A stretch of DNA of 29,171 nt from positions 1-29,171 of the forward strand of contig JBHLNZ010000040.1 in assembly GCA_048941015.1 (NCBI GenBank), in the 5' to 3' direction. The stretch comes from Promethearchaeota archaeon. GTDB taxonomy: Archaea > Asgardarchaeota > Lokiarchaeia > Sigyniarchaeales > SOKP01. Made by a program: the position numbers and the translations under genes. Under the pieces are notes generated by a model. The model saw only the letters and a program-made list of their open reading frames with translations. It ran no database searches and was not told the origin of the DNA. Positions 397 through 19,883 of this stretch are shown here, in pieces (positions within the stretch are counted from its first letter, which is position 1; each line of letters opens with the position of its first letter).

Positions 397-2193
397 ATGG
401 TAGATATACGGATCAAATTCTATATTTTTATAATAATTTTAGGTGTCTTTAATACAACTTTTTTTAGTTTGTATGTGAACGCTAATTCCTCTGAAAGTAT
501 GATAAATGTTCGACCTGGTTGGGATGTTTTGCCTATTTATGAAATTCAGCATCCTCCTGGGCCAAAATGTATTGGTGAAAACGATGATCTTTATTATGTT
601 GATAATCTTAATTATGTAGTAATGAAAATGGATGAGTTTGGGGTTCACACAGAATATATTTCTACGCCTACGTCTTTAAATGATATTATTTATCAACCTA
701 ACCACAATCGCCTATTAGGGATTAATGATTTTGGATTTTATGTTATAACATCAAGTGGGGTGGCTTTTTTGAAAAATTATTCCTATGGAGTGCCTTTAAC
801 AACAATGACGGTTGATCCTACTGATGATTCGTTTTATTGTGGCTCAATTTATAATAATAGTGCCATTTTAAAATTTGATGCTAACGGTAATTTAATAACA
901 ACAACCCTTTCAAGTGTAGAAGGTTGTAGTCAGATTATTTTAAATAATAATCAAAGTATCCTTTATTATACTGAAACTTATTTAGGATCGTTTTCTATGA
1001 TGAATTTAACTAGTTCAGAGATAACATTATTAAAAACAGGAATTGGACTTCCAGGAACACAAGAAGTTATCGGTATTGGAGTTGATGATAATGATACGTT
1101 ATATTATATGACAGCAGATGGCAATAACAGAGGTTTCTATAAGTATGAAAATAACTCTTTTGTATCATTGATGGCTTCAAAAGGAGGTATGAGTACATTA
1201 ACTTGGTCAACTAAATTACAAATGTTCATCGCAGCGGGGAGTTTTGGAGGATGTCTAATAGGCTATGATATAGAAAAAACGGAAGCAGAATTTCTTACTC
1301 CATTAGTGAATTCTCAAACTGTAATAGAAACATTAGAAGGAAACATCCTTTATGTTATAGAAGACATGATATACAAAATAAATTCTTCAGGACCGACTTA
1401 TTTTACTAAGAATCCATATAATTATCCTATTTCTAAACTCATATTAGATGTGGATGACAATATTTATGCTTTATTATCAAATGATTCCGTAACTATCGTT
1501 AGAGTTAATCATAATGGTTCTTTCGAAGATTGGTTTGATAATGAAATTCATGAATGGGCTAAATCAATTCATTTTGATATCAAAAACAATGAAATTATCC
1601 TTTTTGCAGAAAATTCTCCTCAAAATGAAACAAATATTTATCGAATGCCAATAACTGATCCGATGAGCTATTATAAAGTAGCTACAATTGAAAATTCCAC
1701 CAAAGTAGTTGGCGTAACGGATGTATATGGGAATATTTATGCCTTTGAGGCTTATAATAACACTCTTTTTAAAATATCCGATGGATCGATTGATATAGAA
1801 ATTATTACAACGGACTTTATTGATTTTTCTGATATTTATGGGGGACAGGTTATTGTTGAGCCCCCTTTAGGGTATTCTACAATTGAGAATGGTATTTTAA
1901 TTGGTAGAAATGATGATTTACAGATATGGTTGCTTGATGAAAATATAAGAATAACTTTCGCAATTAATAACCGTGGTATTGATAATTCAGCGATTTATCA
2001 GAATTTCAAACAAGAAATTATTTGTACCCAATCTACCTTGATACTTAAATTTTTTTACCGCGAACCCAAAAATCCTACAATACCATTATTAATTTACTAT
2101 TATATTCTTGCTATATTTGTTGGTGTGATCATTGTTATGCATATGCAGAAGAGAAAGTCAATTAAATCAAAATTTATAGCTCCAAAATATTAA
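397..2193 (+). CDS. Secreted, C-terminally membrane-anchored beta-propeller protein (NHL/SMP-30-like blades, probably two propellers)
   Basis: Hydrophobic N-terminal signal. ~40-45 aa repeats such as MTVDPTDDSFY, IGVDDNDTLYY, LILDVDDNIY and VTDVYGNIY. C-terminal TM helix (IPLLIYYYILAIFVGVIIV) followed by basic KRKSIKSK. Confidence 0.7.
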   Translation: MVDIRIKFYIFIIILGVFNTTFFSLYVNANSSESMINVRPGWDVLPIYEIQHPPGPKCIGENDDLYYVDNLNYVVMKMDEFGVHTEYISTPTSLNDIIYQPNHNRLLGINDFGFYVITSSGVAFLKNYSYGVPLTTMTVDPTDDSFYCGSIYNNSAILKFDANGNLITTTLSSVEGCSQIILNNNQSILYYTETYLGSFSMMNLTSSEITLLKTGIGLPGTQEVIGIGVDDNDTLYYMTADGNNRGFYKYENNSFVSLMASKGGMSTLTWSTKLQMFIAAGSFGGCLIGYDIEKTEAEFLTPLVNSQTVIETLEGNILYVIEDMIYKINSSGPTYFTKNPYNYPISKLILDVDDNIYALLSNDSVTIVRVNHNGSFEDWFDNEIHEWAKSIHFDIKNNEIILFAENSPQNETNIYRMPITDPMSYYKVATIENSTKVVGVTDVYGNIYAFEAYNNTLFKISDGSIDIEIITTDFIDFSDIYGGQVIVEPPLGYSTIENGILIGRNDDLQIWLLDENIRITFAINNRGIDNSAIYQNFKQEIICTQSTLILKFFYREPKNPTIPLLIYYYILAIFVGVIIVMHMQKRKSIKSKFIAPKY

Positions 2194-2241
2194 ATTAGTT
2201 CATAAGAAAAACCTTTTTCCAACAAAGTGTGTTATAAAAAT

Positions 2242-3162
2242 CTACATTATTTCTCTGCTAAAAAAATTAATAGGATCATCTATTACAGGGCTATCTACTT
2301 TTATAATCATTTTTTTAACTCCTAAATTTTCAACTTTATTTATTTTTTCTTGAATAGTCTTAACATCACCCATGAATTGGTATTTTAAATTGGATTTAAA
2401 GATACCTTTCTCTTTTCTTATACTTTCAAGCGTTTCTTGACTGTCTACTATTGTTATATTTGTATAAATAGAAATTTCAAACTCGGTAGGATCACGATTA
2501 TATCTTTTCACTTTTTCATCGATAAGGGAAATACTCTCTCGAAACCTTTTTTGATCTGATGGAATAACATAAGCGAGGTTTACTCCATCTGCTTCTCTAC
2601 AAGCAATATCGATCATTCTTTTCCCATTATTTGTTCCAACAACGATCTGCGGATAAGGTTTCTGAATTGATTTAGGAAAATTAAGATGCTTCTCTAGTTT
2701 CCAAAATTTCCCTTCAAAATTTGTCTCATCTTCCGTAAATATTCTTTTATAAATAATAAGAGATTCTTCTAACTCATCGACTCTTCTTTTTGGTGAAGGA
2801 AATGGATAACCAAATGCTTTATATTCATCCTTAAACCAACCTGCTCCTAACCACAATAAAGCTCGACCATTCGAAATGTGATCCAATGTCAATATTACTT
2901 TCGCTAAGTAAGCCGGATTTCTAAAGGAATTACACATAACAATATGACCTAACTTTATTCGATGTGTTTCCGTCGCTAATGCGGCCAAAATAGTATTAGA
3001 TTCTAAAAATGGTTCTTTTTTCTTTTGTGTGTCTCCCAAGCTAAAAAAATGATCTGTAACATGAACAGATTCAAATCCTAATCTTTCGACTTTTACTGTT
3101 AAGTCTCTAATTTCTGAATATTTATGATTTGATGGATCTCTTACTACATACCCAAATCTCAT
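2242..3162 (-). CDS. LLM-class (luciferase-like) flavin/F420-dependent oxidoreductase
   Basis: GFESVHVTDHF, ALATETHRIKLG, RNPAYLAK..TLDHISNGR..LGAGW..EY.AFG motifs. Confidence 0.92.
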   Translation of the reverse strand: MRFGYVVRDPSNHKYSEIRDLTVKVERLGFESVHVTDHFFSLGDTQKKKEPFLESNTILAALATETHRIKLGHIVMCNSFRNPAYLAKVILTLDHISNGRALLWLGAGWFKDEYKAFGYPFPSPKRRVDELEESLIIYKRIFTEDETNFEGKFWKLEKHLNFPKSIQKPYPQIVVGTNNGKRMIDIACREADGVNLAYVIPSDQKRFRESISLIDEKVKRYNRDPTEFEISIYTNITIVDSQETLESIRKEKGIFKSNLKYQFMGDVKTIQEKINKVENLGVKKMIIKVDSPVIDDPINFFSREIM

Positions 3163-3320
3163 AGTCTTTAAAAAATACTTGGAAAAAATAAAGATTATCG
3201 TTTTTGTCGAAAATTATGAAACAAATCTTACTTGTGCTAAACACTTATTTTTTTAATGATTTCCATTTTTTTCATTTTTCTTTCTTATTTGAAAATCTTC
3301 TTTTTTACATTTTTTTAATC

Positions 3321-3416
3321 TTCAACTTGATACTTCCACAAGTATCCCCACCAGCTCAATCAGCGCTGTACGAAGTAGATAGATTTTTAGCTTTTATGAC
3401 AAGTAAAGATTTCTAA
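3321..3416 (+). pseudogene. Possible orphan C-terminal remnant of an alpha/beta hydrolase
   Basis: GC-richer island reading FNLILPQVSPPAQSALYEVDRFLAFMTSKDF*, resembling the post-catalytic-His terminal helix of esterases. The upstream part of the 70-aa track ORF is low-complexity T-rich sequence. Confidence 0.3.
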
Positions 3417-3442
3417 CAAGCTAAAACCAAACTATCTTCCTA

Positions 3443-3483
3443 GAAAGGTAAATTCAGGGTCTGATTTCGATGAAAATCCATTT
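3443..3483. repeat. 41-bp intergenic direct repeat, copy 1
   Basis: GAAAGGTAAATTCAGGGTCTGATTTCGATGAAAATCCATTT; 38/41 identical to 4432-4472. Confidence 0.9.
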
Positions 3484-3490
3484 AAATATT

Positions 3491-4306
3491 TTAATTAATT
3501 TTTAAAAAGTTTACAATTAGTTGGTTTACTATTTTAGATTGTTCCATGAGAACTAAATGTGTCCCACCTCGGATGATTTCGAGTCGTGCATCAGGTATTG
3601 CTTCAGTCATTTCTTGCATAACTTTTAATGGATAGAGACGTTCATTTTCTCCATCGATAATAAGTGAGGGGCATTTAATGTTTTTCAATTGGTCTAGCGT
3701 GAAATTTGGTTCTCGCTTGGCCAGATCCATTTCTTTTTCGATTAAAATTGGCCAATTATCGGGATTTGAGGCTACCTTTTCATACGCTCTTTTAATAAAT
3801 TTAAAATCTTTAGGTATATTATTAGGATCTACATTACTAAAACTTTCAAAGATTTCTGGATAAAAATTAGATATGTTATATGGGGTACCAATTAGTATTA
3901 ACTTGTTTACTAATTCGGGATATTTTAGAGCTAGAACCAAGGAAGTACAACCCCCATCACTCCAACCAATGAAACTTGCTTTTTTTATACCTAATTTTTC
4001 CATTAATTGAGTAATATCTGAAGCAAAGAGCTGATAGCTTAGAGGTTTATCTGAATCTGTTGTCCTTCCATGTGCGCGAGTATCTGGGGTGATTATTCGA
4101 AAATGTTTAGCTAATTCTTTGATTTGAAAAAACCAACTTGAGTGATCTGTCATACCGCCGTGTAGTAAAATAACTGGCTCTCCAGTGCCAAACGTGGCAT
4201 AGTATATTTTTATATCTCCAATATCAATATAATCTTCAATAATGTGTTTTTTTTTCCAAGTGTTAAATTTAACTTTACCCAGTAAAATTTTGATAACTCC
4301 CATCAT
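3491..4306 (-). CDS. Alpha/beta fold hydrolase
   Basis: LLHGG oxyanion motif, PDTRAHGRT, nucleophile GWSDGG, C-terminal His (GGTHL). Confidence 0.93.
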   Translation of the reverse strand: MMGVIKILLGKVKFNTWKKKHIIEDYIDIGDIKIYYATFGTGEPVILLHGGMTDHSSWFFQIKELAKHFRIITPDTRAHGRTTDSDKPLSYQLFASDITQLMEKLGIKKASFIGWSDGGCTSLVLALKYPELVNKLILIGTPYNISNFYPEIFESFSNVDPNNIPKDFKFIKRAYEKVASNPDNWPILIEKEMDLAKREPNFTLDQLKNIKCPSLIIDGENERLYPLKVMQEMTEAIPDARLEIIRGGTHLVLMEQSKIVNQLIVNFLKIN

Positions 4307-4431
4307 TATATAATTCCTTTTTTTATAACTTATTATTGAATTAAGATTAATAATAAAGTTTATTGTAATAGCTTCTCTAAAAAGGTTTAACTATTTTAAA
4401 GGCAATCCCAATTTTATATGAAAATTGGTTG

Positions 4432-4472
4432 GAAAGGTAAATTCAGTGTCTGATTTCAATGAAAATTCATTT
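4432..4472. repeat. 41-bp intergenic direct repeat, copy 2
   Basis: GAAAGGTAAATTCAGTGTCTGATTTCAATGAAAATTCATTT; 3 mismatches against copy 1. Preceded by hairpin CCAATTTT-ATATG-AAAATTGG (4408-4428). Confidence 0.9.
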
Positions 4473-4510
4473 GAAATTTCTAAATATATAAATACATTTT
4501 TGTAAGGATA

Positions 4511-4687
4511 TTATGTGTCATAATCTGATTCGTGGAATTTGTCTCCATTTTCTCCCATTTCCTCATCTTCATCATTTTTCTCATTCCAGTCCCTGTCTTC
4601 TTCTTTTGTTTTGGCTTCCTCGCGATTTCTACTTATCTCATTCCATTTATCAGCTTTAAACTGCTTTTTACTTTTATTTTTTCTCAT
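4511..4687 (-). CDS. 58-aa highly charged, probably disordered small protein (not in ORF track)
   Basis: MRKNKSKKQFKADKWNEISRNREEAKTKEEDRDWNEKNDEDEEMGENGDKFHESDYDT*. Purine-rich coding strand, AAGAGAGA just upstream of the ATG. Confidence 0.6.
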   Translation of the reverse strand: MRKNKSKKQFKADKWNEISRNREEAKTKEEDRDWNEKNDEDEEMGENGDKFHESDYDT

Positions 4688-5121
4688 AATTATCTCTCTT
4701 AAGTATTTATTCTAATATGCATTTCAAATTTCAATTTATAATTTTAAGTATGAGCGGTTTAAATTATAAGATGTCTAAAAATGTTAATTACTCTGATCCA
4801 AGAATAATTTTAATAGATTACACTTTATAATTATCTTAATATATTATAAATGTAATTGAAATATATCTTTTTCCACTTTCTTTCCTATATTTAGTATAAC
4901 GAAAGAACCGATGATTTGCCGTTTTTTTAATTTCATATCTGGAGTTAGCAAAGCAAGAAATTTCATCTTTAGAATATAATAAAAATACAAGAAAGATAAA
5001 AACAAGAGTTAAAAAGCAATTAAAGCGAATAAATACACTGATACAAAAACCATCACTTAAATTTATATAAGGATTGGACAGCTCTCATTGATAAAATCCG
5101 TGTTAAATTGTGATTTTAAAA

Positions 5122-5922
5122 TTAATCATTTAAAAATTGAATTAAAGTCTTTATTACTATATCAGAATCCTGTGAAAAAATGTCATGAGCAAGATCTTTA
5201 AATATAGCTAGTTTTGCTCCTTTTATGTTATTAGCCAATAATTCGGCATTTTCTACTGAAGTGAGAAGGTCCTGTTTACCTTGCATTATTAAAGTGGGTC
5301 TATTAATGTTTTTTAGGCGTTTATAAGTGTTAAATTTCACAATAGCATCAACCTGTCTTTTATACATCTTAGGAGGAGTGGGATTTCTACATTCTCTTTG
5401 AATGTATTCTTCGATTACTTCTGGATTTTCTTTAATAAATTTTTCAGTTAATCTAACTGACATAGATTTCCTCGAAATTTCCTCCGGAGTTGTTTCTTCT
5501 CTTGGTTGCATCATAATCTTTAAAGCTTCTGGTGATGGTAAGGATGATTTAGAGAATCCACAATTTGTAGAACAGAGTATAAGCTTATTTACTCTTTCAG
5601 GATAGTTTAAAACTAATTCTTGTGCTATAGAACCTCCCATTGAAAGTCCAAGAATATGAGCATAGTCAATCTTTAAAGCATCCATCAAATTTATTGTGTC
5701 ATCGGCAAAGATTTTCATAGAGTACTCAATATCCGGTTTATCTGATCGGCCAGAACCTCGATTATCAAAAATAATAACTTTAAAATTTTCTGAAAGTTTA
5801 TCAATAAAACGAGAAGGCCAATAATCCGTATTTCCTCCGATACCCATTATCATTAATAGTGGTGGACCTTGTCCATAAATCTCATAATACATCTTAATGT
5901 CATTAATCTTTATTTTTGGCAT
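5122..5922 (-). CDS. Alpha/beta fold hydrolase (3-oxoadipate enol-lactonase-like family)
   Basis: FDNRGSGRSDKP, nucleophile GLSMGG, GKQDLL acid, LAHD catalytic His. Confidence 0.93.
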   Translation of the reverse strand: MPKIKINDIKMYYEIYGQGPPLLMIMGIGGNTDYWPSRFIDKLSENFKVIIFDNRGSGRSDKPDIEYSMKIFADDTINLMDALKIDYAHILGLSMGGSIAQELVLNYPERVNKLILCSTNCGFSKSSLPSPEALKIMMQPREETTPEEISRKSMSVRLTEKFIKENPEVIEEYIQRECRNPTPPKMYKRQVDAIVKFNTYKRLKNINRPTLIMQGKQDLLTSVENAELLANNIKGAKLAIFKDLAHDIFSQDSDIVIKTLIQFLND

Positions 5923-6100
5923 TGTTAAACCTTGAAAGTGTGTTTAAAAATATCTAAAATCAATTTTAACATTGAACTCGGGAAAATATGTTTTTGGTTT
6001 CTTTTAAAATTTGCTACTCACAAAAGAATAAAAACTAGATAAAATTCCATTGAAAATATTTATAAACAGAAAAAGTTAAAAAAAGAATTTAAGTTAGATT

Positions 6101-6236
6101 TTAGGGTTTCTTTAAATTTTTGCGTATAAAGACTACTACAACTGCTATAATCCCAATTAGAAAAAATAGGTAAAAAAACGAAGAGGATTCCTGAAGTGAT
6201 TAAAACTATTATCTTTGATTTTCGATATGATTTCAT
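6101..6236 (-). pseudogene. Internally deleted surface-protein remnant: signal peptide joined out of frame to a Loki-CTERM-like anchor
   Basis: From ATG 6236 the frame gives MKSYRKSKIIVLITSGILFVFLPI (signal peptide). A shifted frame continues YLFFLIGIIAVVVVFIRKNLKKP* (TAA at 6103-6101). Confidence 0.6.
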
Positions 6237-6264
6237 TCTAATTTTATCCATATTTTGATTTATA

Positions 6265-6720
6265 TCATTGAGCCAATTTTATTCCGAATTCTTTGCATTT
6301 TGGAAGATCCTCATTTACTATAGGACCTTTTGAAACTCCTGTACCCTCAACTTTTATAGACAATCCTGGACTGGCTTTTGTTAAATCCGGCATCACTTCA
6401 CTAACCTGTTCCTCCATCTTTTTAACAGCTTTTTCAAAATCAGCTGTTACGTAGGTATCAAATACAGCATATGAATTGACCTTTAATTGAGATTTCGGTA
6501 GCTTATTTATAAATTTCTTTACCGAACCTACATGGCGTCCAAAATGATTCGGGGATCCTATTAAAAGTAAGTCATAGGAATCATCTTTTTTAAGATTTAC
6601 ATCTTTTACATTTTTAACTACTACTTCATTAGCCTCAATAGATTTTATTCCTTCTGCAATTAAGTTGGCTACTTTTTCAGTATTTCCATATTTTGTATAA
6701 AAAACTATTAAAACTTTCAC
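6265..6720 (-). CDS. Flavodoxin family protein
   Basis: FMN loop FYTKYGNTEKVA, IGSPNH, AVFDT. GTG start with AGGTG RBS upstream. Confidence 0.9.
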   Translation of the reverse strand: MKVLIVFYTKYGNTEKVANLIAEGIKSIEANEVVVKNVKDVNLKKDDSYDLLLIGSPNHFGRHVGSVKKFINKLPKSQLKVNSYAVFDTYVTADFEKAVKKMEEQVSEVMPDLTKASPGLSIKVEGTGVSKGPIVNEDLPKCKEFGIKLAQ

Positions 6721-6885
6721 TTTTAATCACCTTTATAATAATACTACTTTAATTTAATATTCCTAATGAAACTTTATAATTAACTTTTTTAGTAGAATAT
6801 ATAATATGCATTTTTATTACTTAAATATTATTTTAACTTTTAATATTTATACAAAAAAATGGAAAAAATCTGCAGTTTGCATATA

Positions 6886-6920
6886 AAAATTTATAAATTT
6901 ATGATCCTATTCTAGATCAT
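6886..6920 (+). promoter_or_regulatory. Putative TATA box followed by an inverted-repeat operator
   Basis: A-rich BRE-like run plus TTTATAAA (~6890-6897), then ATGATC-N8-GATCAT (6901-6920), upstream of the Zn-ribbon ORF and glnA. Confidence 0.4.
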
Positions 6921-6965
6921 TAAAAAGTAGATTTGAAAATTTAATCTAAGAAAGGGATTTAAAAT

Positions 6966-7355
6966 ATGTTAAAATGTCCTATTTGTGGAAAGGAGTATTC
7001 ATATGAGGGAAAAATATGTCTAGAGTGTGAAAATCGTTCACTTTATAGTGGATTGGCAAAACCTGAAGACTTGAAAGATTATACTTGGAATTGTGCCATC
7101 TTTTTGGATGATTATAAATCAATTTTTGGAGTTCAAAAATCTTTAAGGCATTATTTGAAACTAACTGCCGAACCAAGCAAATTAAAAGTAAGGGGACAAA
7201 AGCGTTATGAATGGAATACAAATACTGCGGTAAGGTTTAAATCCTGTATTGAACAATCCCTTATATCTTCAGGAATAAAGTATGATTCAGAATTAGTTAG
7301 AGATATTTTAAAGGTAATGGAAAAAGCAGCTGGTTCATCCCTAATTTATGAATAA
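6966..7355 (+). CDS. Hypothetical protein with N-terminal zinc ribbon
   Basis: CPICG-x8-CLEC at the N-terminus; two Y-x-W-N motifs (DYTWN, RYEWN). Confidence 0.75.
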   Translation: MLKCPICGKEYSYEGKICLECENRSLYSGLAKPEDLKDYTWNCAIFLDDYKSIFGVQKSLRHYLKLTAEPSKLKVRGQKRYEWNTNTAVRFKSCIEQSLISSGIKYDSELVRDILKVMEKAAGSSLIYE

Positions 7356-7424
7356 AATTTTCAAAATATATAATTATACTATTTTTGAGTTAAAAAGAAA
7401 AATTAAAAAGAAATTGGTATAGAT

Positions 7425-8777
7425 ATGATTGAAAAGCATGATCCTAAAAGGAAAGAGATGTGTGATGCGGTAATTGAAAGGATAAAAGAAGAAGATATTA
7501 GGTTTATATATCTTCAATTTACCGATATTCATGGAATCATTAAATCCTTTGAAATAAATTCGAGAAGGATTGAAGAAATTTTTGAAGATGGAGAGAATTT
7601 CGATGGAAGTTCTATCACGGGTTATGGGGCTATAGAAGAATCAGATAAGGTTGCGCTTCCTGATCCAAGCACATTTTATCTTCTTCCATGGAGGAAAGAG
7701 AATAAAGTTGCTCGAGTTATTTGTGATATTTACAAGCCTGATGGAGAACGTTATGAAGGAGATCCACGTGCAATTTTACAGCGAGCAGTTAAAAAAGCGA
7801 AGGATCTGGGATATACTTATTTTTGTGCTCCTGAGATGGAATTTTTTATAATAACTCCGGATACAGAACAAGCTTTTAAACCATCAGATATGAGAGGTTA
7901 TTTTGATTATGATCCTTATGATATCAATGAGATGATAAGGTATAGGATAGCAGAATACAGCGATGCAATGGGAATATCTGTAGAATGTGAGCATCATGAA
8001 GTTGCGTATGGGCAACATGAGATAGATTTCAGATATGACGAAGCAGTTAATACTGCAGATAATACAATTACGATTAAAGCAATTGTAAAAACTGTTTCAG
8101 CACAGCACAATTTAATAGGGACGTTTATGCCTAAACCCTTTGAAGGAATTAATGGATCGGGGATGCATGTACACCAATCCCTTTGGAAGAATGGAAATAA
8201 CGTATTTTATGATGAAAATGATAAGGATAGCATTTCCCTTTTAATGAAGAAGTGGATAGCTGGTCAACTTAAACATGCGATACCAATGTGTGCTGTATTA
8301 AGCAGTTGGCCTAACTCATATAAAAGATTAGTTCCCGGTTATGAGGCACCAGTTTACCTTGCTTGGGGATTCCGAAATAGATCACCATTACTTAGAGTCC
8401 CAGATTTTCATGGTAAATCTAGTGCTGCCCGATGTGAAATAAGATGTCCTGATCCAGCAGGGAATCCATATTTGCAATTTGCAGTATTACTTTCTGCAGG
8501 CATGGATGGAATCATGTCAGATAATATAGATATTCCTGATGCGACAGATAGAAACGTGTATCATTTATCATCAAAGGAAATGGAAAAAGAAGGAATAATT
8601 TCTTTACCGGGGAGCTTACATGAAGCCTTAAAATATTTTAGGAATTCAGAGTTTATGAAAGAAATTTTTGGCGAATTAGCATTTAAGAATTATTATTATG
8701 CTAAATTAGAAGAATATGATGCATATCGAATGGTAGTGAGTGAATGGGAGAGGAATAGGTATATAACTCGCTTATAA
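7425..8777 (+). CDS. glnA: Glutamine synthetase type I
   Basis: FDGSSI, APEMEFF, HHEVAYGQHEI, TFMPKPF.G.NGSGMHVHQSL, NSYKRLVPGYEAP, NRS, EIRCPDP motifs. Confidence 0.97.
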   Translation: MIEKHDPKRKEMCDAVIERIKEEDIRFIYLQFTDIHGIIKSFEINSRRIEEIFEDGENFDGSSITGYGAIEESDKVALPDPSTFYLLPWRKENKVARVICDIYKPDGERYEGDPRAILQRAVKKAKDLGYTYFCAPEMEFFIITPDTEQAFKPSDMRGYFDYDPYDINEMIRYRIAEYSDAMGISVECEHHEVAYGQHEIDFRYDEAVNTADNTITIKAIVKTVSAQHNLIGTFMPKPFEGINGSGMHVHQSLWKNGNNVFYDENDKDSISLLMKKWIAGQLKHAIPMCAVLSSWPNSYKRLVPGYEAPVYLAWGFRNRSPLLRVPDFHGKSSAARCEIRCPDPAGNPYLQFAVLLSAGMDGIMSDNIDIPDATDRNVYHLSSKEMEKEGIISLPGSLHEALKYFRNSEFMKEIFGELAFKNYYYAKLEEYDAYRMVVSEWERNRYITRL

Positions 8778-10936: not shown

Positions 10937-12754
10937 TTATGTTTTCATCTTACCGATTTCTTCAATATATTTAAGAGACTGATGTCTAAAGTAGGTATTG
11001 TAAAGTTGGGCATAATAACCTCCACGTTGCATTAATTCTGAGTGGTTTCCTTCTTCTATAATTTTACCATTTTCTATAACAATGATTCGATTTACTTTTC
11101 TTACTGTCCATAATCGATGAGCAATAATAATAGAAGTTCTACCTTCCATTGTTTTTTCTAATGCTTCTTGAATACGTGTTTCTGTAAAAGGATCAACGGA
11201 GGCAGTTGCTTCGTCAAGAATTAGAATTGAAGGATTTTCTAATAATACCCTTGCAAAAGCAACCAATTGTCGTTGTCCCATTGAGAGAAGATTACCTCTT
11301 TCACCTACATTTGTGTCTAATCCATTTGAAAGACTATTTATCCAATCTGAACCACCAGCTCTATCTAATGCAACCATTACATCATCACAATTGACAGAAC
11401 TACAACCATAGCTGATATTTTTTTCAACTGTATCTGCCCATAAAAAGGGTGTCTGTGGAATGATTCCAATTTGTTCGCGGTATTTTTTTAAATTGTAATT
11501 ACGAATACTTATTCCATCTACTAAAATATCGCCTCCCTGGAATTCATAAAATCTAGCTATTAATTTTGCAATACTAGATTTTCCTGCTCCAGTGTGGCCC
11601 ACAAGAGCTATAGATTCTCCAGGATTTATCTTAAGAGAAAAATTGTCGAAAATTTTTTTGTTTTCCTCGTATTGAAAAATCAGATTTTTAAATTCAACCT
11701 CTCCACGCAACTTTGAAGGATCGATATTATCTTTTTGAACAACAACAGGAGGTGAATCTATTATTGCAAAAATTCTTTCTGAAGCAGATAAACCAGATTG
11801 GAATTGGGGCCAAAAGGAAGCAATGGTGAGTAAAGGAAAAAAGAGAAATGACAAACTCTGGAAAAAAAAGTTGAATTCTCCAGCATTAAATACTCCTAAA
11901 ATTAAAAAATTACCTCCATAATAAACTAAAATTGTTAAGACAACACCTTGAATGATCGAAAGGGTAGGGAAAATCGCATTCAATATAAGTGCTCTCCTTA
12001 GATTAACTTTATAAGATTGTACATTAACTTGATTGAATTGTTCATATAATTTAGGTTCTTGTCTGAATGTTTTTGCTATTTGTATGCCTGAGAAACTCTC
12101 TTTTACAAAAGCATTTACGGAAGCTAAAGCCCTTTGTCCTAAAAGGGTCATTTTCCTTGCAAATTTGCGATAAGATAAAGCAATAAGAAAAAATAGAGGG
12201 ATCATAATTAACATTGCTAAGGTTAGTGTTACATTGATTATCAACAAAAGTATAATTAAAATGATCATAACAATAGCATTTGAAGCCACCTCGATTGTTA
12301 AATCAACGGTCTGAGCAAAGTCACGACTATCAGTATTAATTCGACTGACAATCTTCCCTACTGGATTTTTATCGAAAAACGAGAGATCATGATCTAAAAC
12401 TGATTGAGTTGCATCTTTTCTTAAATCTAACTCTACATTCCCTATTGCTTTTGCTGCATATATGTATCTAAAGTAATTGAAAACGTAGGTCAAGATATTA
12501 AGGATTAATATCAAACCAATTAACAATATAAAACTAAAAATAGTAGGATCAGCTGCTAAATTGTTAATGGCTATTGATGTGATTAACGGAACAAATGAGT
12601 TTGAAAGAGAAGATAAAATTAGGAGAAAAATTACGATACTTATGTATTTCTTATAAGGGTTGAAATATTGGAAGATTCTTTTTAATAAAGCCCTATCTTT
12701 GATTTCTCTATCATACTCCTCGGCTTCTAAACCTACCCATACCATTTTATACAA
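10937..12754 (-). CDS. ABC exporter (TMD-NBD half transporter), subunit B of a heterodimer
   Basis: TM region plus Walker A GHTGAGKS, signature LSMGQRQ, Walker B ILDEAT, IAHRL. True start may be ATG at 12745. Confidence 0.95.
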   Translation of the reverse strand: MYKMVWVGLEAEEYDREIKDRALLKRIFQYFNPYKKYISIVIFLLILSSLSNSFVPLITSIAINNLAADPTIFSFILLIGLILILNILTYVFNYFRYIYAAKAIGNVELDLRKDATQSVLDHDLSFFDKNPVGKIVSRINTDSRDFAQTVDLTIEVASNAIVMIILIILLLIINVTLTLAMLIMIPLFFLIALSYRKFARKMTLLGQRALASVNAFVKESFSGIQIAKTFRQEPKLYEQFNQVNVQSYKVNLRRALILNAIFPTLSIIQGVVLTILVYYGGNFLILGVFNAGEFNFFFQSLSFLFFPLLTIASFWPQFQSGLSASERIFAIIDSPPVVVQKDNIDPSKLRGEVEFKNLIFQYEENKKIFDNFSLKINPGESIALVGHTGAGKSSIAKLIARFYEFQGGDILVDGISIRNYNLKKYREQIGIIPQTPFLWADTVEKNISYGCSSVNCDDVMVALDRAGGSDWINSLSNGLDTNVGERGNLLSMGQRQLVAFARVLLENPSILILDEATASVDPFTETRIQEALEKTMEGRTSIIIAHRLWTVRKVNRIIVIENGKIIEEGNHSELMQRGGYYAQLYNTYFRHQSLKYIEEIGKMKT

Positions 12755-14588
12755 CCCCTTTTATTAATTCTTGCTCATCAAGGTCAAACTTCTTAACGAA
12801 TATTTTTCTATATTCTTCTGAAGTCCTTAGAAGTTCTTGATGATCTCCTTTAGCTTCGATTTTACCATCCTTTAAGACAATTATTAGGTCTGCCCATCTA
12901 ATTTGGCTTAACCTATGAGTAATTAAAAAGGTAGTTCTATTTCGTAAAATATTCTTAATAGCATATTGTATTTTATCTTCAGTATTCGAATCAATTGCTG
13001 ATGTTGAGTCATCTAATATAAGTATTTTTGGATCAGCAAGGAATGCTCTGGCAATTGCTATACGTTGTCTTTCACCTCCACTTAATAGGACGCCTCTCTC
13101 TCCAATTTTTGATTCATATTCTTCAGGTAATTCATTAATGAATTCATGGGCTTGAGCTTGTTTTGCCGCTTCTATTACTTTTTCTTTAGAGCCAATTCGA
13201 CCAAAGGAAATATTTTCAAAAACTGAAAAGGAAAATAAGAACACATCTTGTTCAATATAAGATATTTGAGCTCTAAGTGATTTTAATGCAAAATCCCTAA
13301 TATCTTCACCATCAATAAGTATTTTCCCTTCAGATACATCATATAATCTTGAAATTAATTTGGTTAATGTAGTTTTCCCTGACCCTGTTGTTCCAACAAT
13401 TGCTACGGTTTGACCTGGTTTAACCTCAAATGTAATGTCTCTTAAAACTAAATTGGTAGTTCCTGGATAACTGAAAGATACACCTTCAAAATTTATTGCC
13501 CCTTGTATTTCTTTCTGTATTCCATTAGGGTTTTCATCAATTTCTGTTTCTTGGTTCATCAACTCAAGTAATCTTTTTGCACTACTTCCAGCTATTTTTA
13601 TTATTGCAAACACAAAAATCGAGATAAATGTGGAGAAATATAACAAATTCAATAAACCAATATAAGAAATAATTTGACCGATATTCATTAATCCTAAATT
13701 GAATAATATTAGTGAATGTGCTAAACCTATGGCAATAACTATGCCCAAAAATAAAATAGGCATATATTTAGCTTGAATTTTTCCCTGTTGTAAATATGCA
13801 TCTCTATATTTTTTTGCAAACATAAGATACCTATCTAACTCATAGGTTTCTTGGGTTGAACCTTTCACTATTTCAATACCAGAAAGAGCTTCATTTAAGG
13901 TTGCATTAATCATACCGAAATTCATTCTTAAATCTCCTGTAACAGGGGATAATTTTTTGTTATATCTTCTTAATGATATAATAAATAGAATGGTAAAAGT
14001 AATAGGTTCAAATATTAATTGAATGGGATAAAAGAGTAAAATAAAAATTATTGGAATTACTAAAGTTGTAAAAGATTCGAAAATAAGAGAAACAGCAGGA
14101 CTTATTAAAAAATTTAGCATTCTAACATCGTCTGTTACTCTTGCCATAAGATCTCCAACTCTTTGCTTATCATGAAAAGATTGGGATTTGCCTAATAGAA
14201 TTCCATAAAATTCTTTCCTTGTATCACGTTCAAGTCTTTGAGCTAAAATTTCTCTTAAACCATAATTTAAAAGCCTTAATATCGGAGTCATTAATCCAAG
14301 AAATAATATCGTTATTGTATAGAATAGAAGACTACCAATATTTGCATTTAAAAATTGTTCAACAGCATTACCTATCGAAATAGATATATTTGAAGCTAAA
14401 ATTGAGGCAAGGATAGTCGTAAAAAAAACTATAAATATCAATATTTTATTTGTCCCATAAAAAATGTGCGATAAAATCCATCTAAGTACTCCCTTTTTTC
14501 GAGCCTTTTGAAAATGATCTTTACCAGGAGAAAATTCTAAGATTTGGTTTTGATTTTTAATACCAGTACTTTTAGGCAAACAGAACAC
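12747..14588 (-). CDS. ABC exporter (TMD-NBD half transporter), subunit A with degenerate Walker B
   Basis: GTTGSGKT, LSGGERQR, ILDDST (catalytic E replaced by D, as in TM287/288-type heterodimers). True start may be TTG at 14579 after AGGTG. Confidence 0.95.
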   Translation of the reverse strand: MFCLPKSTGIKNQNQILEFSPGKDHFQKARKKGVLRWILSHIFYGTNKILIFIVFFTTILASILASNISISIGNAVEQFLNANIGSLLFYTITILFLGLMTPILRLLNYGLREILAQRLERDTRKEFYGILLGKSQSFHDKQRVGDLMARVTDDVRMLNFLISPAVSLIFESFTTLVIPIIFILLFYPIQLIFEPITFTILFIISLRRYNKKLSPVTGDLRMNFGMINATLNEALSGIEIVKGSTQETYELDRYLMFAKKYRDAYLQQGKIQAKYMPILFLGIVIAIGLAHSLILFNLGLMNIGQIISYIGLLNLLYFSTFISIFVFAIIKIAGSSAKRLLELMNQETEIDENPNGIQKEIQGAINFEGVSFSYPGTTNLVLRDITFEVKPGQTVAIVGTTGSGKTTLTKLISRLYDVSEGKILIDGEDIRDFALKSLRAQISYIEQDVFLFSFSVFENISFGRIGSKEKVIEAAKQAQAHEFINELPEEYESKIGERGVLLSGGERQRIAIARAFLADPKILILDDSTSAIDSNTEDKIQYAIKNILRNRTTFLITHRLSQIRWADLIIVLKDGKIEAKGDHQELLRTSEEYRKIFVKKFDLDEQELIKGVV

Positions 14589-14747
14589 CTTATTTATACA
14601 ATTACAAAATATACTCTTTAATCTTTTAATTAATGAGATAAAAAAAAGAATAATTAATAGACTTTATAGCTTTAAATTATAAATGCGCATCTATTTAGAA
14701 AATAATGTATTTATAATACCTATTATAGAGTGAAATGATATCGAAAA

Positions 14748-16397
14748 ATGATGCGTAAAAATCTAAAATTAGTAATTGGCCAAATTAACCCTATTGTAGG
14801 GGATATAGAATATAATAAGAGTAAAATGGTCGAAATTATAGAAAAATATAGCGACATGGATCTAATAATTTTTCCTGAGATGGCCTTAGTTGGTTATCCA
14901 ATTATGGATCATATTTACGATCCGATAATTAGAGAGAGAAATCTACAAGCAATAGAGGAAATTAAGAATATTGATTCAGATGCAGCCATTATACTAGGTA
15001 CGTTTACAGAATCAGATGAAATAAAGGAAAAAGTACATCCTTTTTATAACTCAGCTCTAATTATTGAAAATAATAAAATTAGAGAAGTAATTAACAAAAG
15101 ATTACTCCCAAATTACGATGTTTTTGATGAGCGCAGATATTTCACTTTCGAAAAAGACTTTAATCCAATCGAAATTAAGGGAGTTAAAGTTGGTATATTG
15201 GTATGTGAAGATTTATGGGATGATTTTTATGAACTAAAGGTTTCTAAGAACCTTGTAAATAATGGAGCAGAATTATTAATTGTTATAAATGCTTCTCCTT
15301 ATCATATTGGAAAATTTAAACTGAGAAGTGATTTAGTCTGTGAAAAGGCTAAAGATTTAGGGATCTCTATTGTATATGTGAACATGGTTGGTGGTCTTGA
15401 TGAAATTGTTTACGATGGTCAAAGCTTTATTTCTAATAAGCAGGGGCAAATTATCTTCAAAGCTAAAGGATTCGAAGAGGAGGTCTCTGCTTTTAATTTA
15501 ACTATTGAAAATGTAAAATTAAAAGAAGAAATAAGTTATGAAATTGATTGGCGTGAAGAAGTCCTTAAAGCTTTAAAATTAAATTTATATGATTATTATT
15601 ACAAGAGCAATATTTTTAGTGGTGTGGTATTAGGTCTAAGTGGAGGTATAGATTCTGCCTTTACAGCGTATATATGTGCTGAAGCTTTGGGTCCGGATAA
15701 AGTGAATGCTATAATGATGCCAACTAAATTTACATCTCAAGAAAGTTTAAATTTGGCTAAACAATTTTGTAAAAATTTGAAAATTAACTACATTATTCAT
15801 TCTATAGATGATTTATTTGAAGCTTATGAAAAATCATTAAAGCAAAACATGGGAGATTTGCCATTTGATATAGCAGACGAGAATCTTCAAGCCCGTATTA
15901 GAGCAACAATTTTAATGTATTACTCTAATAAGTTTAATTGGCTGTTAGTATCTACGGGCAACAAATCTGAAATAGCTGTAGGGTATTGTACACTTTATGG
16001 TGATACTAATGGAGGTAAAAATGTACCTGGAGATCTTTTAAAGGTTCAAATTTATGATATATGCAATTATATAAATAAAGATAAAAAAATTATACCAAAT
16101 GGAATTATTACACGACCTCCAACAGCAGAGTTGAGAGAAAATCAAAAAGATAGTGATTCAATTCCTCCCTATGAAATTCTTGACCGTATATTGGAAGAAA
16201 TCATAGAGCATGGTGTTGGAGATGAATTAAAACATTTAGAAAGTGAAGATATTGATATCCAAACAATTCTAAAAGTGAGACGACTTTATTTGAATTCTGA
16301 ATATAAAAGAAGACAATTGGTTCAAACTATAAAAGTAAGCCAGAGTGCTTTTGGTATAGGACGTCGATATCCTGTATTAAAAAGAATAAAATTTTAG
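14748..16397 (+). CDS. nadE: Glutamine-dependent NAD+ synthetase
   Basis: Nitrilase domain with FPE / KRLLPNYDVFDERRYF / VCEDLW triad; synthetase GLSGGIDS, ENLQARIR, TGNKSE, GYCTLYGD. Confidence 0.97.
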   Translation: MMRKNLKLVIGQINPIVGDIEYNKSKMVEIIEKYSDMDLIIFPEMALVGYPIMDHIYDPIIRERNLQAIEEIKNIDSDAAIILGTFTESDEIKEKVHPFYNSALIIENNKIREVINKRLLPNYDVFDERRYFTFEKDFNPIEIKGVKVGILVCEDLWDDFYELKVSKNLVNNGAELLIVINASPYHIGKFKLRSDLVCEKAKDLGISIVYVNMVGGLDEIVYDGQSFISNKQGQIIFKAKGFEEEVSAFNLTIENVKLKEEISYEIDWREEVLKALKLNLYDYYYKSNIFSGVVLGLSGGIDSAFTAYICAEALGPDKVNAIMMPTKFTSQESLNLAKQFCKNLKINYIIHSIDDLFEAYEKSLKQNMGDLPFDIADENLQARIRATILMYYSNKFNWLLVSTGNKSEIAVGYCTLYGDTNGGKNVPGDLLKVQIYDICNYINKDKKIIPNGIITRPPTAELRENQKDSDSIPPYEILDRILEEIIEHGVGDELKHLESEDIDIQTILKVRRLYLNSEYKRRQLVQTIKVSQSAFGIGRRYPVLKRIKF

Positions 16398-16426
16398 AAT
16401 GAAAAATTCAAACCTAACATTTAGGA

Positions 16427-16963
16427 TTAAAGCAGACCAGAATTGCTCATCATTACTTTAGTAATATTTTCAAAAATATTATCAACATTCTCACCAGTTT
16501 TAGCAGAACATTCAAAATATCCCTGTAAATTACGTGATTTTGCTATTTCCATTGCCTCTTGAGTATCAACAGAAACATTTTCTTCAAGATCTAGTTTTCC
16601 TCCGACCATGATTATTGGAATATTTGTTTTTGAATTCTTCATCTCTTCAATAAAAATAGAAAGCCAATTATCAATATTTTTTAAGCTATTATATCGTGTA
16701 AGATCAAACATAAAGACTCCACCTTGAGCTCCTTTTACAAAACTTGGAAATAAAATCTTATATCTCTCTTCTCCCGCGAAATCCCAAATTTGAAGTCTAA
16801 CTAATTGATCTTCAATTTCAATATCTTTTATGCTAAGATCTGTCCCGATTGTCATTTTAAGGTCTTCATTAAAGACTCTTGTGAGATATCTGTGAGTTAA
16901 AGAGGTTTTACCAACCCCACCATCTCCAAAAATACATAGCTTGAATTTAATGTTATCATTCAA
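16427..16963 (-). CDS. Rab-like small GTPase (Ras superfamily, Asgard type)
   Basis: G1 GDGGVGKT, G2 TIG, G3 WDFAG, G4 variant GGKLD, G5 CSAK. TTG start with AGGTG RBS. No prenylation Cys. Confidence 0.93.
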   Translation of the reverse strand: MNDNIKFKLCIFGDGGVGKTSLTHRYLTRVFNEDLKMTIGTDLSIKDIEIEDQLVRLQIWDFAGEERYKILFPSFVKGAQGGVFMFDLTRYNSLKNIDNWLSIFIEEMKNSKTNIPIIMVGGKLDLEENVSVDTQEAMEIAKSRNLQGYFECSAKTGENVDNIFENITKVMMSNSGLL

Positions 16964-18875: not shown

Positions 18876-19883
18876 ATGACATTTAATATTGAGACTAGAA
18901 GAGTACAGCAAACTGGAGGCTCTTCCTTTATAGTGAGCTTACCAAAGGAATGGATTGAAAAACATGGCATCGAACCGAAAGATACAATCGGGATTCTTTC
19001 TCAACCTGATGGTAACCTTCTAATTACTCCTTATATAAGTTCACAAGACTATATAAAAGAGAAAGTCTTTGATGTTGATGAGATTAAAAATTCTGATTTC
19101 TTATTTAGGCTCTTAATTGGAGCTTATATAATGGGCTATACAATAATTAAGATTAAAACAAGTCGGGAGAAATTCGAATCATTTATTAGGGAAACTGTTG
19201 AAGGTTTTATAAATATAGCAATAGGACCAGAAATTATTGAAGAAACAAACCAATTTATCATGATAAAAGATTTATTGAATCCAAAGGAGATGCCTTTTGA
19301 AAAAACGATAAAAAGGATGTATATATTAGTCCAAGGAATGCATGAAGATGCAGTAAAAGCGTTAGAAGAAGGTAATAAAAAACTTGCAGAAAAGGTAATT
19401 AATCGGGATGATCAGGTTGATAAACTAAATTGGTTGGTTGAGCGACAATCGCATATCGTATTAAGAGATATTATTTTATGTCAAAAAATGGGTATTACAT
19501 TAGAAGATGCGAGCAATTTTCAATTTATCAGTAAATTTTTAGAAAGAATTGGAGATCACGCAGTTAAGATTGCTAGAAGTGTTCTTAAAATAGATTACCA
19601 GAAAATAAATAAAAAACTCTTCGAAAGTATTACTAAAGCAAGTAAAATGTCATTACAATTACTGAATATAAGCCTAGATGCATGGCTTCAAAAAGATTTA
19701 ATCCTAGCGAATGAAAATATTGAATCTATATCAAAATTAATTGAAGTTTGTGAGCAGATACAATTTCATACAGAAAATAGTGCAGAATCTGCTGTTGAAA
19801 TTGGTTATATCATTGAAAGTATTAGACGAGCTGGTGAATATTCATCCGATATTTCAGAAATAATAATAAATAACCTCATTTAA
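18876..19883 (+). CDS. phoU: Archaeal phosphate uptake regulator (AbrB-type N-domain plus PhoU domains)
   Basis: ETRRVQQTGGSSFIVSLPKEW AbrB motif, RDDQVD, LERIGDHA, SIRRAGEYSSDISE. Confidence 0.93.
   Translation: MTFNIETRRVQQTGGSSFIVSLPKEWIEKHGIEPKDTIGILSQPDGNLLITPYISSQDYIKEKVFDVDEIKNSDFLFRLLIGAYIMGYTIIKIKTSREKFESFIRETVEGFINIAIGPEIIEETNQFIMIKDLLNPKEMPFEKTIKRMYILVQGMHEDAVKALEEGNKKLAEKVINRDDQVDKLNWLVERQSHIVLRDIILCQKMGITLEDASNFQFISKFLERIGDHAVKIARSVLKIDYQKINKKLFESITKASKMSLQLLNISLDAWLQKDLILANENIESISKLIEVCEQIQFHTENSAESAVEIGYIIESIRRAGEYSSDISEIIINNLI

Follow-up and report, generated by a model that had tools for sequence, protein, structure and literature searches.

The repeat and its surroundings in the window

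The window (the whole stretch analyzed, 29,171 nucleotides of a Loki-type Asgard archaeon) carries, between positions 2242 and 6720, open reading frames (ORFs) that all lie on the minus strand. Two strong copies of a 41-bp element, copy A (3443-3483) and copy B (4432-4472), bracket a single alpha/beta hydrolase gene, hydrolase 1, in this region (Table 1). In the following, G000 is the genome of the window, and other G and L labels are the genomes and loci compared with it. The identity between both copies of 38/41, the bracketing of one hydrolase gene and the common orientation of the ORFs were all part of the original prediction and were reproduced. The match extends to 55 nt at 85% (3443-3497 and 4432-4486), and the pattern GGTAAATTCAG-N3-CTGATTTC occurs twice in the window, with 0 matches in 100 shuffles. 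Copy B reaches further left, to about 4391, and includes a palindrome and a TATA-like box that had been missed.

Table 1. Coordinates of the repeat copies, their parts and the neighboring genes in the window.
Feature	Position	Strand	Description
Luciferase-like monooxygenase gene	2242..3162	-	Flank downstream of copy A; Pfam PF00296, 4.1e-45
Copy A, O segment	3444..3469	-	No homology beyond the core on the downstream side
Copy A, P arm	3470..3487	-	Abuts the hydrolase 1 stop codon
Cassette	3444..4458	-	989-bp period between the O segments of copies A and B; comprises P' and promoter remnant, hydrolase 1, P
Hydrolase 1	3491..4306	-	Alpha/beta hydrolase, 271 aa, cargo gene; Pfam Abhydrolase_1, 1.9e-29
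Copy B, P' arm	4391..4432	-	Palindrome and TATA-like box; integrase-operon promoter remnant, upstream of hydrolase 1
TATA-like box of copy B P'	about 4391-4402	-	
P' palindrome of copy B	4408-4428	-	CCAATTTT-N5-AAAATTGG
Copy B, O segment	4433..4458	-	TGAAATCAGAC-N-CTGAATTTACCTTT on the minus strand; putative crossover zone
Copy B, P arm	4459..4476	-	ATGAAAATTCATTTGAAA on the plus strand; half travelling with the upstream module (58-aa ORF)
58-aa ORF	4511..4687	-	Highly charged; module upstream of copy B

Degenerate copies had also been proposed at 5090-5108 and 6038-6061. Neither gave a genome-wide nhmmer match at E<=10, a search in which the true copies reach 4e-12 or better, and both have more than 3 mismatches from the 19-nt right half of the element. 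The homology with hydrolase 2 orthologues stops at 5120 and 6016, indicating that these sites are non-conserved AT-rich sequence. Both weak copies are regarded as noise. The strong copies do lie just 3' of minus-strand stop codons, as had been noted (copy A abuts 3491 and copy B is 25 nt from 4511), but this location is not general for the family, as the orientation of cargo genes described below makes clear. With regard to the dyads, TCAG-N3-CTGA was confirmed and is family-wide, GATTT-N6-AAATC is present in copy A only, and the dyad of the whole family is TTTCAA(T)-N-(A)TTGAAA.

The neighboring genes are also known from other genomes. At least 12 genomes of the genus have the DNA of the 58-aa ORF with 72-90% conservation, in most cases with no copy adjoining it, and the junction of this ORF with the P arm of copy B is 93% conserved in G018:C11. 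A 77% homologue of the luciferase-like monooxygenase is found in G014:C194 between two copies, in the opposite orientation.

Anatomy of the site

Read on the minus strand of the window, the site has the structure P-O-P'. The left arm, P, is TTTCAAAGGAATTTTCAT, with TTTTCACTAAATTTTCAT as a second allele, and O is a 26-nt segment that every copy has and that is nearly invariant in 250 copies. The full form of P' consists of a palindrome, a BRE/TATA promoter, a ribosome-binding site and the start of a 172-aa ribbon-helix-helix (RHH) gene, and the ORF that starts at the end of the long form begins with MSEKSKP. P' is the promoter region of an operon encoding this RHH protein and a tyrosine recombinase, and the extent to which P' and the operon are kept is graded: among the 250 copies, 77 have the core only, 109 have the palindrome, 26 extend as far as the TATA box, 19 as far as the ribosome-binding site and 15 into the ORF. 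Covariation in the P' palindrome is uninformative, because there is plain conservation of the arms and a spacer of variable length. No 11-6-11 dif-like architecture is present in O; the best dyads of the consensus are 9-3-9, 8-7-8 and 7-7-7.

O is linked to neither flank. P goes with the upstream module and P' with the downstream module, and where two copies have only the upstream flank in common, the linked sequence continues through the P arm. O is the likely crossover zone of the site. In copy A, O is not followed by the P' palindrome, so that its downstream side is unique flank (B' type). The P arm of copy A is kept to a varying extent in orthologous loci, with GATGAAAATTCCTTT in L051 and only AATTCCTTT in L052 and L050. 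The P' arm of copy B can be aligned with the long form, which more than 60 copies show, as well as with the RHH-integrase operon promoter of L175 and G008:C32.

Distribution and array layout

The genome of the window contains 11 copies, not two, and 7 of these are co-oriented within a 12-kb stretch of another contig, C48. Copies are present in 23 of the 24 sampled genomes of the genus (1-16 each), and over 200 additional contigs from marine sediment also have them. The core pattern was matched exactly in over 120 metagenome stretches and over 107 stretches of the genome collection, and a viral contig collection yielded no core match and no relative of the integrase. The tandem arrays that had been anticipated are the rule: in 54 of the 57 loci with at least two copies, all copies point in the same direction. 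The spacing of copies in multi-copy loci has a median of 1286 bp, and 48 of 71 units contain one ORF. The orientation of cargo ORFs relative to the site is near random (59 co-oriented vs 47 opposite). This cargo comprises accessory enzymes, such as alpha/beta hydrolases, GNAT acetyltransferases, beta-lactamase-family hydrolases and methyltransferases.

Exchange of flanking sequence at the copies

Synteny breaks at the copies. When pairs of copies are compared by their common flanks, 28 share the left flank only, 32 the right flank only and 1 both, with both-flank matches limited to duplicate or 98-100% identical records. Left-linked sequence stops near offset -13 and right-linked sequence starts near +26, and what lies in between is shared by every copy. 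Offsets -14 to -10, 0, +11 and +22 to +27 are polymorphic. Six units are found again elsewhere between copies, with a different neighbor on either side. The 989-bp hydrolase unit of the window is one of them: it is bounded by copies on both sides in three genomes, each time with different left and right neighbors. A comparison of orthologous loci had been suggested as a check, and orthologues of hydrolase 1 with 84-87% identity indeed lie between copies in two other species (G022:C94 and G018:C28), next to unrelated neighbors.

A precise gain or loss was also observed, in the one clean occupied-versus-empty pair that was found. L173 corresponds to L040 with a single 798-bp unit and a single further copy added, and the outer flanks match at 91% and 96%; the two sites and 798-bp unit of L173 correspond to one site at position 19290 of G015:C177. 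In addition, L040 and L112 differ as expected for an inversion between two inverted copies. No naive target site without the repeat could be defined. The 3' flank of ribonucleotide reductase was considered as a conserved target and rejected, because in G000 this position is without a copy and the flank, simply a different sequence, could not be aligned.

Metagenome contigs at copy B turn into unrelated sequence at 4430-4434 and 4467/4476, and in contigs from public runs the depth peaks sharply at the core, where loose ends also occur. The public-run contigs contained no circular or deletion junction of the 989-bp unit, a weak test because it covers assembled contigs only.

The linked RHH and tyrosine-recombinase operon

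Intact forms of the ORF behind the long site are present in G008:C32 and L175, where an RHH/NikA-like protein gene overlaps a PF00589 tyrosine-recombinase gene. The recombinase is a Xer-like protein of 306 aa encoded downstream of the 172-aa RHH gene. In the metagenome contig L175, two co-oriented copies 5.1 kb apart (2108-2181 and 7211-7280) enclose the operon together with three other genes, and the RHH gene (2205-2753) and the integrase gene (2750-3670) follow from 25 nt past the first site. L175 is the only contig that combines an intact integrase with both a full site and another site; outside the intact case, the operon is truncated to varying degrees. A nearby tyrosine recombinase had been named as something to look for, and the continuity of the site with the promoter of this operon provides the connection.

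The L175 integrase matches PF00589 with 80.4 bits, and its catalytic set R, K, HxxR, H, Y is complete and aligned throughout with XerA. Against the integron-integrase model TIGR02249 it reaches 52.6 bits (cut-off 265), over positions 34-184 of 315 only. The best family is archaeal XerA-like (94.5 bits, also under the cut-off), and among solved structures XerA (5hxy) is the best relative. Of 42 genomes of the genus, 4-5 carry an intact integrase of this lineage, none adjoining a canonical copy. For the intact integrase elements of G008, G017, G005 and G051, no direct repeats were detected within the flanking DNA examined, and no platform integrase adjoins any of the arrays examined. No integrase of the RHH-operon type was found in G000. 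The sole PF00589 match of this genome is on another contig, so that the window is without a recombinase, as originally stated.

Interpretation and alternative explanations

In one genus of Loki-type (Promethearchaeia) Asgard archaea, the repeat is probably a double-stranded site-specific recombination (att) site at the boundaries of small cassettes of accessory genes. Insertion, loss and reshuffling of these packets are most likely carried out by the Xer-like integrase that is present on a few of them. The original idea, by which modules of about one gene recombine or insert at the element in an integron-like way but without attC ends, is supported and held up in the checks that had been proposed with it.

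It has also to be considered that the repeat is a dispersed regulatory module, consisting of a terminator and the operator/promoter of the next gene, with the shuffling caused by ordinary homologous recombination and the link to the integrase being historical and irrelevant. The long form would fit this, as it has a plausible BRE/TATA box, a ribosome-binding site and operator-type palindromes, and T-runs lie ahead of the core. Copies that retain the TATA box face a co-oriented ORF in 19 vs 12 cases (core-only copies, 24 vs 27), and the integrase is absent from most genomes. However, at least 7 copies are antisense to both neighbors and several lie between convergent genes, and the near-random cargo orientation given above does not suit such a module. 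A regulatory rationale for co-orientation in 54 of 57 loci is also lacking. Furthermore, the strongly conserved part is O, located 30-80 nt upstream of the TATA box, and pairs of long-form copies lose identity at the O edge although the P' homology goes on. Such a module is therefore considered improbable, with pure 3'-UTR and pure promoter readings ruled out by the orientation of neighbors in 23 large loci and 250 copies. Homologous recombination between the 45-100-bp repeats could account for some of the shuffling at the att sites proposed here.

A structured RNA, either a 3'-UTR/terminator motif or a small RNA gene, is very unlikely. Both window copies come after stop codons, the short dyads have variable loops, and one A-T to C-G double change was found in the TTTCAAT/ATTGAAA dyad, all of which would favor an RNA. 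Neither copy has an Rfam match (window 2000-7500, E<=10), though, and folding energies are unremarkable, copy B giving z = -2.1 and -2.6 and copy A z = +0.4 and +0.3, with local hairpins only. The conservation is in primary sequence rather than in pairing, the orientation is independent of neighboring genes, and the one-sided sharing of flanks would be left unexplained. C/D-box, tRNA-fragment and ORB-like readings did not fit when inspected by eye.

Hardly credible is a transposon end, MITE or REP-like element moved by a transposase: although the repeat is short, intergenic, many-copy, has dyads and breaks assemblies, its aligned flanks show no terminal inverted repeats, target-site duplications or paired ends, copies are in co-oriented arrays and not scattered, no pair of loci was found that differs by the element alone, and the linked enzyme is a tyrosine recombinase. 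The Y1 transposase (PF01797) is absent from G000, and IS200/IS605 and REP-RAYT readings were rejected on this ground. The 3'-UTR RNA motif and the MITE, which had been named as alternatives at the outset, are thus both rejected.

Proposed mechanism of cassette exchange

For the att site favored here, the enzyme of the RHH operon is a predicted recombinase that would act on O, presumably through a circular intermediate and also in trans. A circular unit with one P-O-P' would recombine within O at a resident site, by which the unit is inserted and the site duplicated. Recombination of two direct sites would remove a unit, and that of two inverted sites would flip the segment between them. Repeated insertion may have produced the co-oriented arrays. 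Deletions entering from the P' side would have removed the RHH-integrase operon from most units, and such operon-less units would move only with integrase supplied in trans, by a rare autonomous unit or conceivably by the host XerA (contig C129 of G000). In some units, such as that of hydrolase 1, the leftover P' promoter would then face the cargo gene.

There is about an even chance that these parts form a self-contained gene-capture system with the logic of integrons and an independent origin. A rare autonomous cassette with RHH protein and Xer-like integrase would insert, excise and invert hundreds of one-gene P-O-P' cassettes in several arrays per chromosome, and the outward promoter of the site would sometimes drive the captured gene.

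Comparison with known systems

Clusters of attC sites without an integrase (CALINs) have been reported in Archaea and are enriched in Asgard archaea (Ghaly et al. 2022, PMC9668308). The motif did not turn up in the available supplementary files of that paper. The arrays share with integrons, especially sedentary chromosomal ones, and with CALINs their co-orientation and their mostly one-gene accessory cassettes, with a conserved recombination site at the boundary of each. As in integrons, similarity between sites is higher within a lineage, an integrase is missing from most arrays, cassettes recur in different contexts and the enzyme is a tyrosine recombinase. Unlike in integrons, neither strand of the consensus has GTTRRRY or RYYYAAC, and there is no attC-type folded hairpin, the single-strand folds being short and local (z from -2.6 to +0.4). 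An identity as attC was rejected, as its consensus ends and long hairpin are both absent. The recombinase is Xer-like, scores far under the integron-integrase model and does not qualify as IntI by the specific domain. The integrase also lies inside the cassette, co-oriented with the site and with the RHH gene ahead of it; there is no fixed attI/Pc platform, and cargo orientation is near random.

Streptococcal integrative elements in tandem accretion and cis-mobilizable elements (CIMEs; PMC5704250), as well as the tycheposons arrayed in Prochlorococcus islands (bioRxiv 10.1101/2020.12.28.424599), are also tyrosine-recombinase elements with direct att repeats. In these systems, too, successive integration at one kind of site results in tandem arrays, integration genes decay and leave cargo between att sites, and integrase fragments are scattered in islands. 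The features of integrative elements found here are the complete catalytic set, direct att repeats with the integrase at one end (single contig), and occupied and empty sites that differ by one element and one att copy (one case). In contrast to CIMEs and tycheposons, the host is archaeal, the att site is not in a tRNA or other host gene, and the units, with a median of 1.3 kb and usually one gene, are much smaller. A genome has several arrays, and internal junctions stay attP-like, P-O-P'. Aloposons (PMC8813620) are unrelated, being giant-gene elements at tRNA genes.

The dif (pdif) modules of Acinetobacter plasmids and Xer-exploiting elements (PMC6449649) are similar in being small adaptive modules with short recombination sites that are shared between replicons, in having no recombinase of their own and in the Xer-like family of the enzyme. 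The Asgard site differs from pdif in that it does not have two 11-bp arms and a 6-bp spacer (11-6-11), as judged on layout. In addition, the copies are direct repeats instead of alternating inverted ones, and a dedicated RHH and integrase operon is attached to the site.

Significance for Asgard archaea

Asgard archaea have large genomes with many accessory genes, many of which were apparently acquired from elsewhere. The site described here gives a concrete and testable route by which such genes may arrive, with a defined 26-nt exchange segment and a named candidate enzyme pair. One-gene packets encoding hydrolases, acetyltransferases and beta-lactamase-family enzymes turn over faster than the flanking genes diverge between species. 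The site also accounts for contig breaks at these places in these genomes. As it is not attC by sequence or by fold, attC-based searches would probably miss it. If the proposed system is true, the problem that integrons solve would have been solved a second time in a non-homologous way, with unrelated parts. We know of no genetics for the Loki-type group so far, and the site and its integrase could become a recombination tool for these archaea.

Copies of the repeat and their occurrence

Copies A and B of the repeat match at 38 of 41 positions in the core, as originally predicted, and their similarity extends to 55 nt at 85% identity. The window has two occurrences of the motif GGTAAATTCAG-N3-CTGATTTC; 100 shuffles gave none. 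The copies bracket exactly one alpha/beta-hydrolase gene (hydrolase 1), and every ORF between 2242 and 6720 is on the minus strand, and both of these points of the original prediction hold. Two weak partial copies that had also been proposed, at 5090-5108 and 6038-6061, are not members of the family. In a genome-wide search with a profile from the true copies, which reach 4e-12 or better, neither is matched at E<=10, and both differ from the right half of the repeat at more than three positions. They are also located in non-conserved sequence, since similarity to orthologues of hydrolase 2, the second hydrolase gene, ends at 5120 and 6016.

Two other segments of the window recur in the genus. 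The DNA of a highly charged 58-aa ORF, rich in K, E and D, is 72-90% conserved in at least 12 genomes, mostly without an adjoining repeat, and is probably a real small gene. A segment of ~94 nt at the start of a 63-aa ORF recurs at 77-87% in several genomes and may be an N-terminal or signal segment shared by a surface-protein family; one counterpart is found ~120 nt from a repeat copy.

The repeat is not restricted to the pair in the window. The genome (3.59 Mb, 144 contigs, 29% GC) holds 11 clear copies, of which two are in the window and seven on contig C48; C58 and C88 have one copy each. The copies on C48 share one orientation inside 12 kb and separate genes for a metallo-beta-lactamase-fold protein, a carboxylesterase, an ABM monooxygenase, an FMN reductase, a beta-lactamase-family hydrolase, an Lrp-type regulator and a CAAX protease. 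At a distance of ~225 nt from a full copy, the first part of the beta-lactamase-family gene contains a weak inverted partial site (nhmmer E=0.011) that may be due to chance. In the same genus, copies are present in 23 of 24 sampled genomes (1-16 each), and 16 genomes from other genera of the order gave weak AT-rich matches only. An exact-pattern scan found the motif in more than 120 marine-sediment metagenome stretches and in more than 107 stretches of species-representative genomes, the latter mostly labeled Promethearchaeota or Promethearchaeia, with a few other Asgard submitter labels. In public runs, copy B reaches a word depth 15-70 times that in most bins of the stretch, and at 4430-4434 and 4467/4476 many contigs continue into DNA that is unrelated.

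Positions and elements of the repeat system and associated features
Feature	Position	Strand	Sequence or remark
Copy A	3443-3497		
Copy B	4432-4486		
Hydrolase 1	3491-4306	minus	single gene bracketed by copies A and B
58-aa ORF	4511-4687	minus	
~94-nt segment	6162-6255		
Counterpart of ~94-nt segment	G015:C177, 26640-26733		
Weak partial site	L001 (G000:C48), 12434-12481		
Palindrome of long form	past core		CCAATTTTC-ACA-GAAAATTGG
BRE/TATA-like box of long form	after palindrome		GGGACAAAATTTAAAAAGG
Ribosome-binding site of long form	after BRE/TATA-like box		GGAGG
ORF start of long form	after GGAGG		MSEKSKP..YTYKYIQFT
RHH-integrase operon	L061 (G008:C32), 14009-16869		right half of O missing
505-aa gene	L175, 3965-5482	minus	
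GC-rich stretch	L010 (G020:C95), ~1240-1380		

Array layout and cargo

The layout was analyzed for 250 non-identical copies. The tandem arrays that had been anticipated are present, with a single orientation in 54 of the 57 loci with at least two copies. The median spacing between copies is 1286 bp (n=82; interquartile range 909-1776), and 48 of 71 units contain one ORF of at least 80 aa. The cargo consists of accessory enzymes, including alpha/beta hydrolases (8 of 101), GNAT acetyltransferases (5) and beta-lactamase-family hydrolases (4), as well as NosD-like proteins and methyltransferases. Cargo ORFs have the same orientation as the site in 59 cases and the opposite one in 47, at least seven copies are antisense to both neighbors, and several are located between convergent genes, so the repeat is not a 3'-UTR motif and not just a promoter.

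Copies as exchange points

Among copy pairs with at least 70% identity in a shared flank, the upstream flank alone is shared by 28, the downstream flank alone by 32 and both flanks by one; with shorter flanks, both-flank matches are restricted to overlapping records or assemblies that are 98-100% identical. Per-position linkage shows that upstream-linked identity stops near offset -13 and downstream-linked identity starts near +26, and that all copies share the stretch between these offsets, which has no linkage to either side. In single pairs the switch is sharp, even where homology in the downstream arm runs on. The site can thus be divided into an upstream-linked arm (P), a common segment of 26 nt (O) and a downstream-linked arm (P'). 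The central base of O (offset +11) is freely variable and linked to neither flank, which would be compatible with a location in the strand-exchange region.

Six units are found again between two sites but next to different outer neighbors on both sides. The stretch L173 carries two sites and a 798-bp unit (191-aa ORF) exactly where contig G015:C177 has one site, with outer flanks at 91% and 96% identity. Its junctions read P1-O-P' ... P2-O-B', in which B' is a unique flank without the P' palindrome, the form that insertion of a circle with P2-O-P' should leave. A further difference, between G015:C177 and L112, is as expected from inversion between two inverted sites. The one-unit difference at L173, the recurrent units and the one-sided flank sharing support the proposed recombination or insertion site. 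Precise gain or loss was seen for the 798-bp unit; the 989-bp hydrolase unit of the window, one of the six recurrent units, is found with new neighbors in G018:C28 (980 bp) and G022:C94 (1043 bp).

The long form and its integrase

In the reading direction of the window's minus strand, many copies reach beyond the core into a palindrome, a BRE/TATA-like box, a ribosome-binding site and an ORF start. Where intact (G008:C32), this ORF encodes a 172-aa ribbon-helix-helix (RHH) protein (NikA-like match, weak) and at its end shares ATGA with an overlapping gene for a 307-aa tyrosine recombinase. The metagenome contig L175 has the complete order. Here the last part of a ribonucleotide reductase gene is followed by a full site, including palindrome and promoter, and then by the genes for the RHH protein and the integrase (PF00589, 80 bits); after three more genes comes a second site in the same orientation, at a distance of 5.1 kb from the first. 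On this contig, the tyrosine recombinase sought near the copies lies between two sites. It is Xer-like, with XerA (5hxy) as best solved relative, retains R, K, HxxR, H and Y, and scores far below the integron-integrase model.

Retention of P' and the operon is graded: of the 250 copies, 77 have the core only, 109 include the palindrome, 26 reach the TATA box, 19 the ribosome-binding site and 15 the ORF. In copy B, the palindrome and TATA-like box are kept and a deletion follows. The orthologous copies in G022 (L048, C94) and G055 (L050, C88) keep the ribosome-binding site, GGAGG, and an 11-codon mini-ORF (MSEKSKFLFDF or MGKKSKLLFDF) upstream of hydrolase 1, a fused stub of the RHH gene start that likely lies within the 5' leader of the cargo gene. 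In the genus, no more than 4-5 of 42 genomes have an intact integrase of this lineage, and fragments are located near copies in G016:C51 and G008:C30. The genome of the window has none of this lineage, but only a XerA-like gene on C129.

The site of the intact L061 operon, which lacks part of O, may be disabled; the operon adjoins genes for a truncated UvrD-like helicase and an Mrr-type restriction endonuclease, with a ParB-like gene and several unknown genes further out. Sister integrase lineages (49-53% identity) in L062 (G017:C82), L063 (G005:C89) and L068 (G051:C219) each have their own RHH partner and a different upstream motif, ATGAAAGGTCGTGAAATC ... CATAACATTTATATG, and may be used at other att sites of this genus. 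For the 505-aa protein of the autonomous L175 unit, Pfam and PHROG gave no match; a protein language model puts it near viral and bacterial SF2-helicase-like clusters (ResIII/DEAD, score 0.93-0.97), a lead to a possible SF2-helicase-like function. In L010, a truncated long-form site is immediately followed by a stretch that is GC-rich, in a genome of 29% GC, and that looks like part of a structured RNA gene.

Relation to known systems and proposed mechanism

A published study reports integrase-less attC clusters (CALINs) in Archaea, with an enrichment in Asgard (PMC9668308). The repeat system has the same logic as integrons and CALINs, as predicted, but is without IntI, attC ends or fold, and platform. 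Further similarities are with tandem accretion involving cis-mobilizable elements (PMC5704250) and with tycheposon arrays, although its units are of one-gene size and its att site is not a tRNA gene, and with the Acinetobacter dif modules (PMC6449649), although the repeat is not dif-like and occurs as direct repeats. Tandem integration and integrase loss, but not cassette arrays, are mentioned in a review of archaeal tyrosine recombinases (PMC8371274), and none of the papers searched describes the site or system.

The main rival explanation is that units are exchanged by homologous recombination between repeats. Against it speak the abrupt switch at the boundary of O, the shared orientation of copies and the linkage to an integrase. 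From the sequences, the repeat is best read as a classical double-stranded att site. The Xer-like integrase, as candidate enzyme, would insert, excise and invert units by exchange inside O, probably with the RHH protein as helper or regulator. Repeated insertion would build arrays; their internal junctions are attP-like (P-O-P'), as expected for tandem integrations. Deletions from the P' side would remove the integrase operon and leave cassettes without an integrase.
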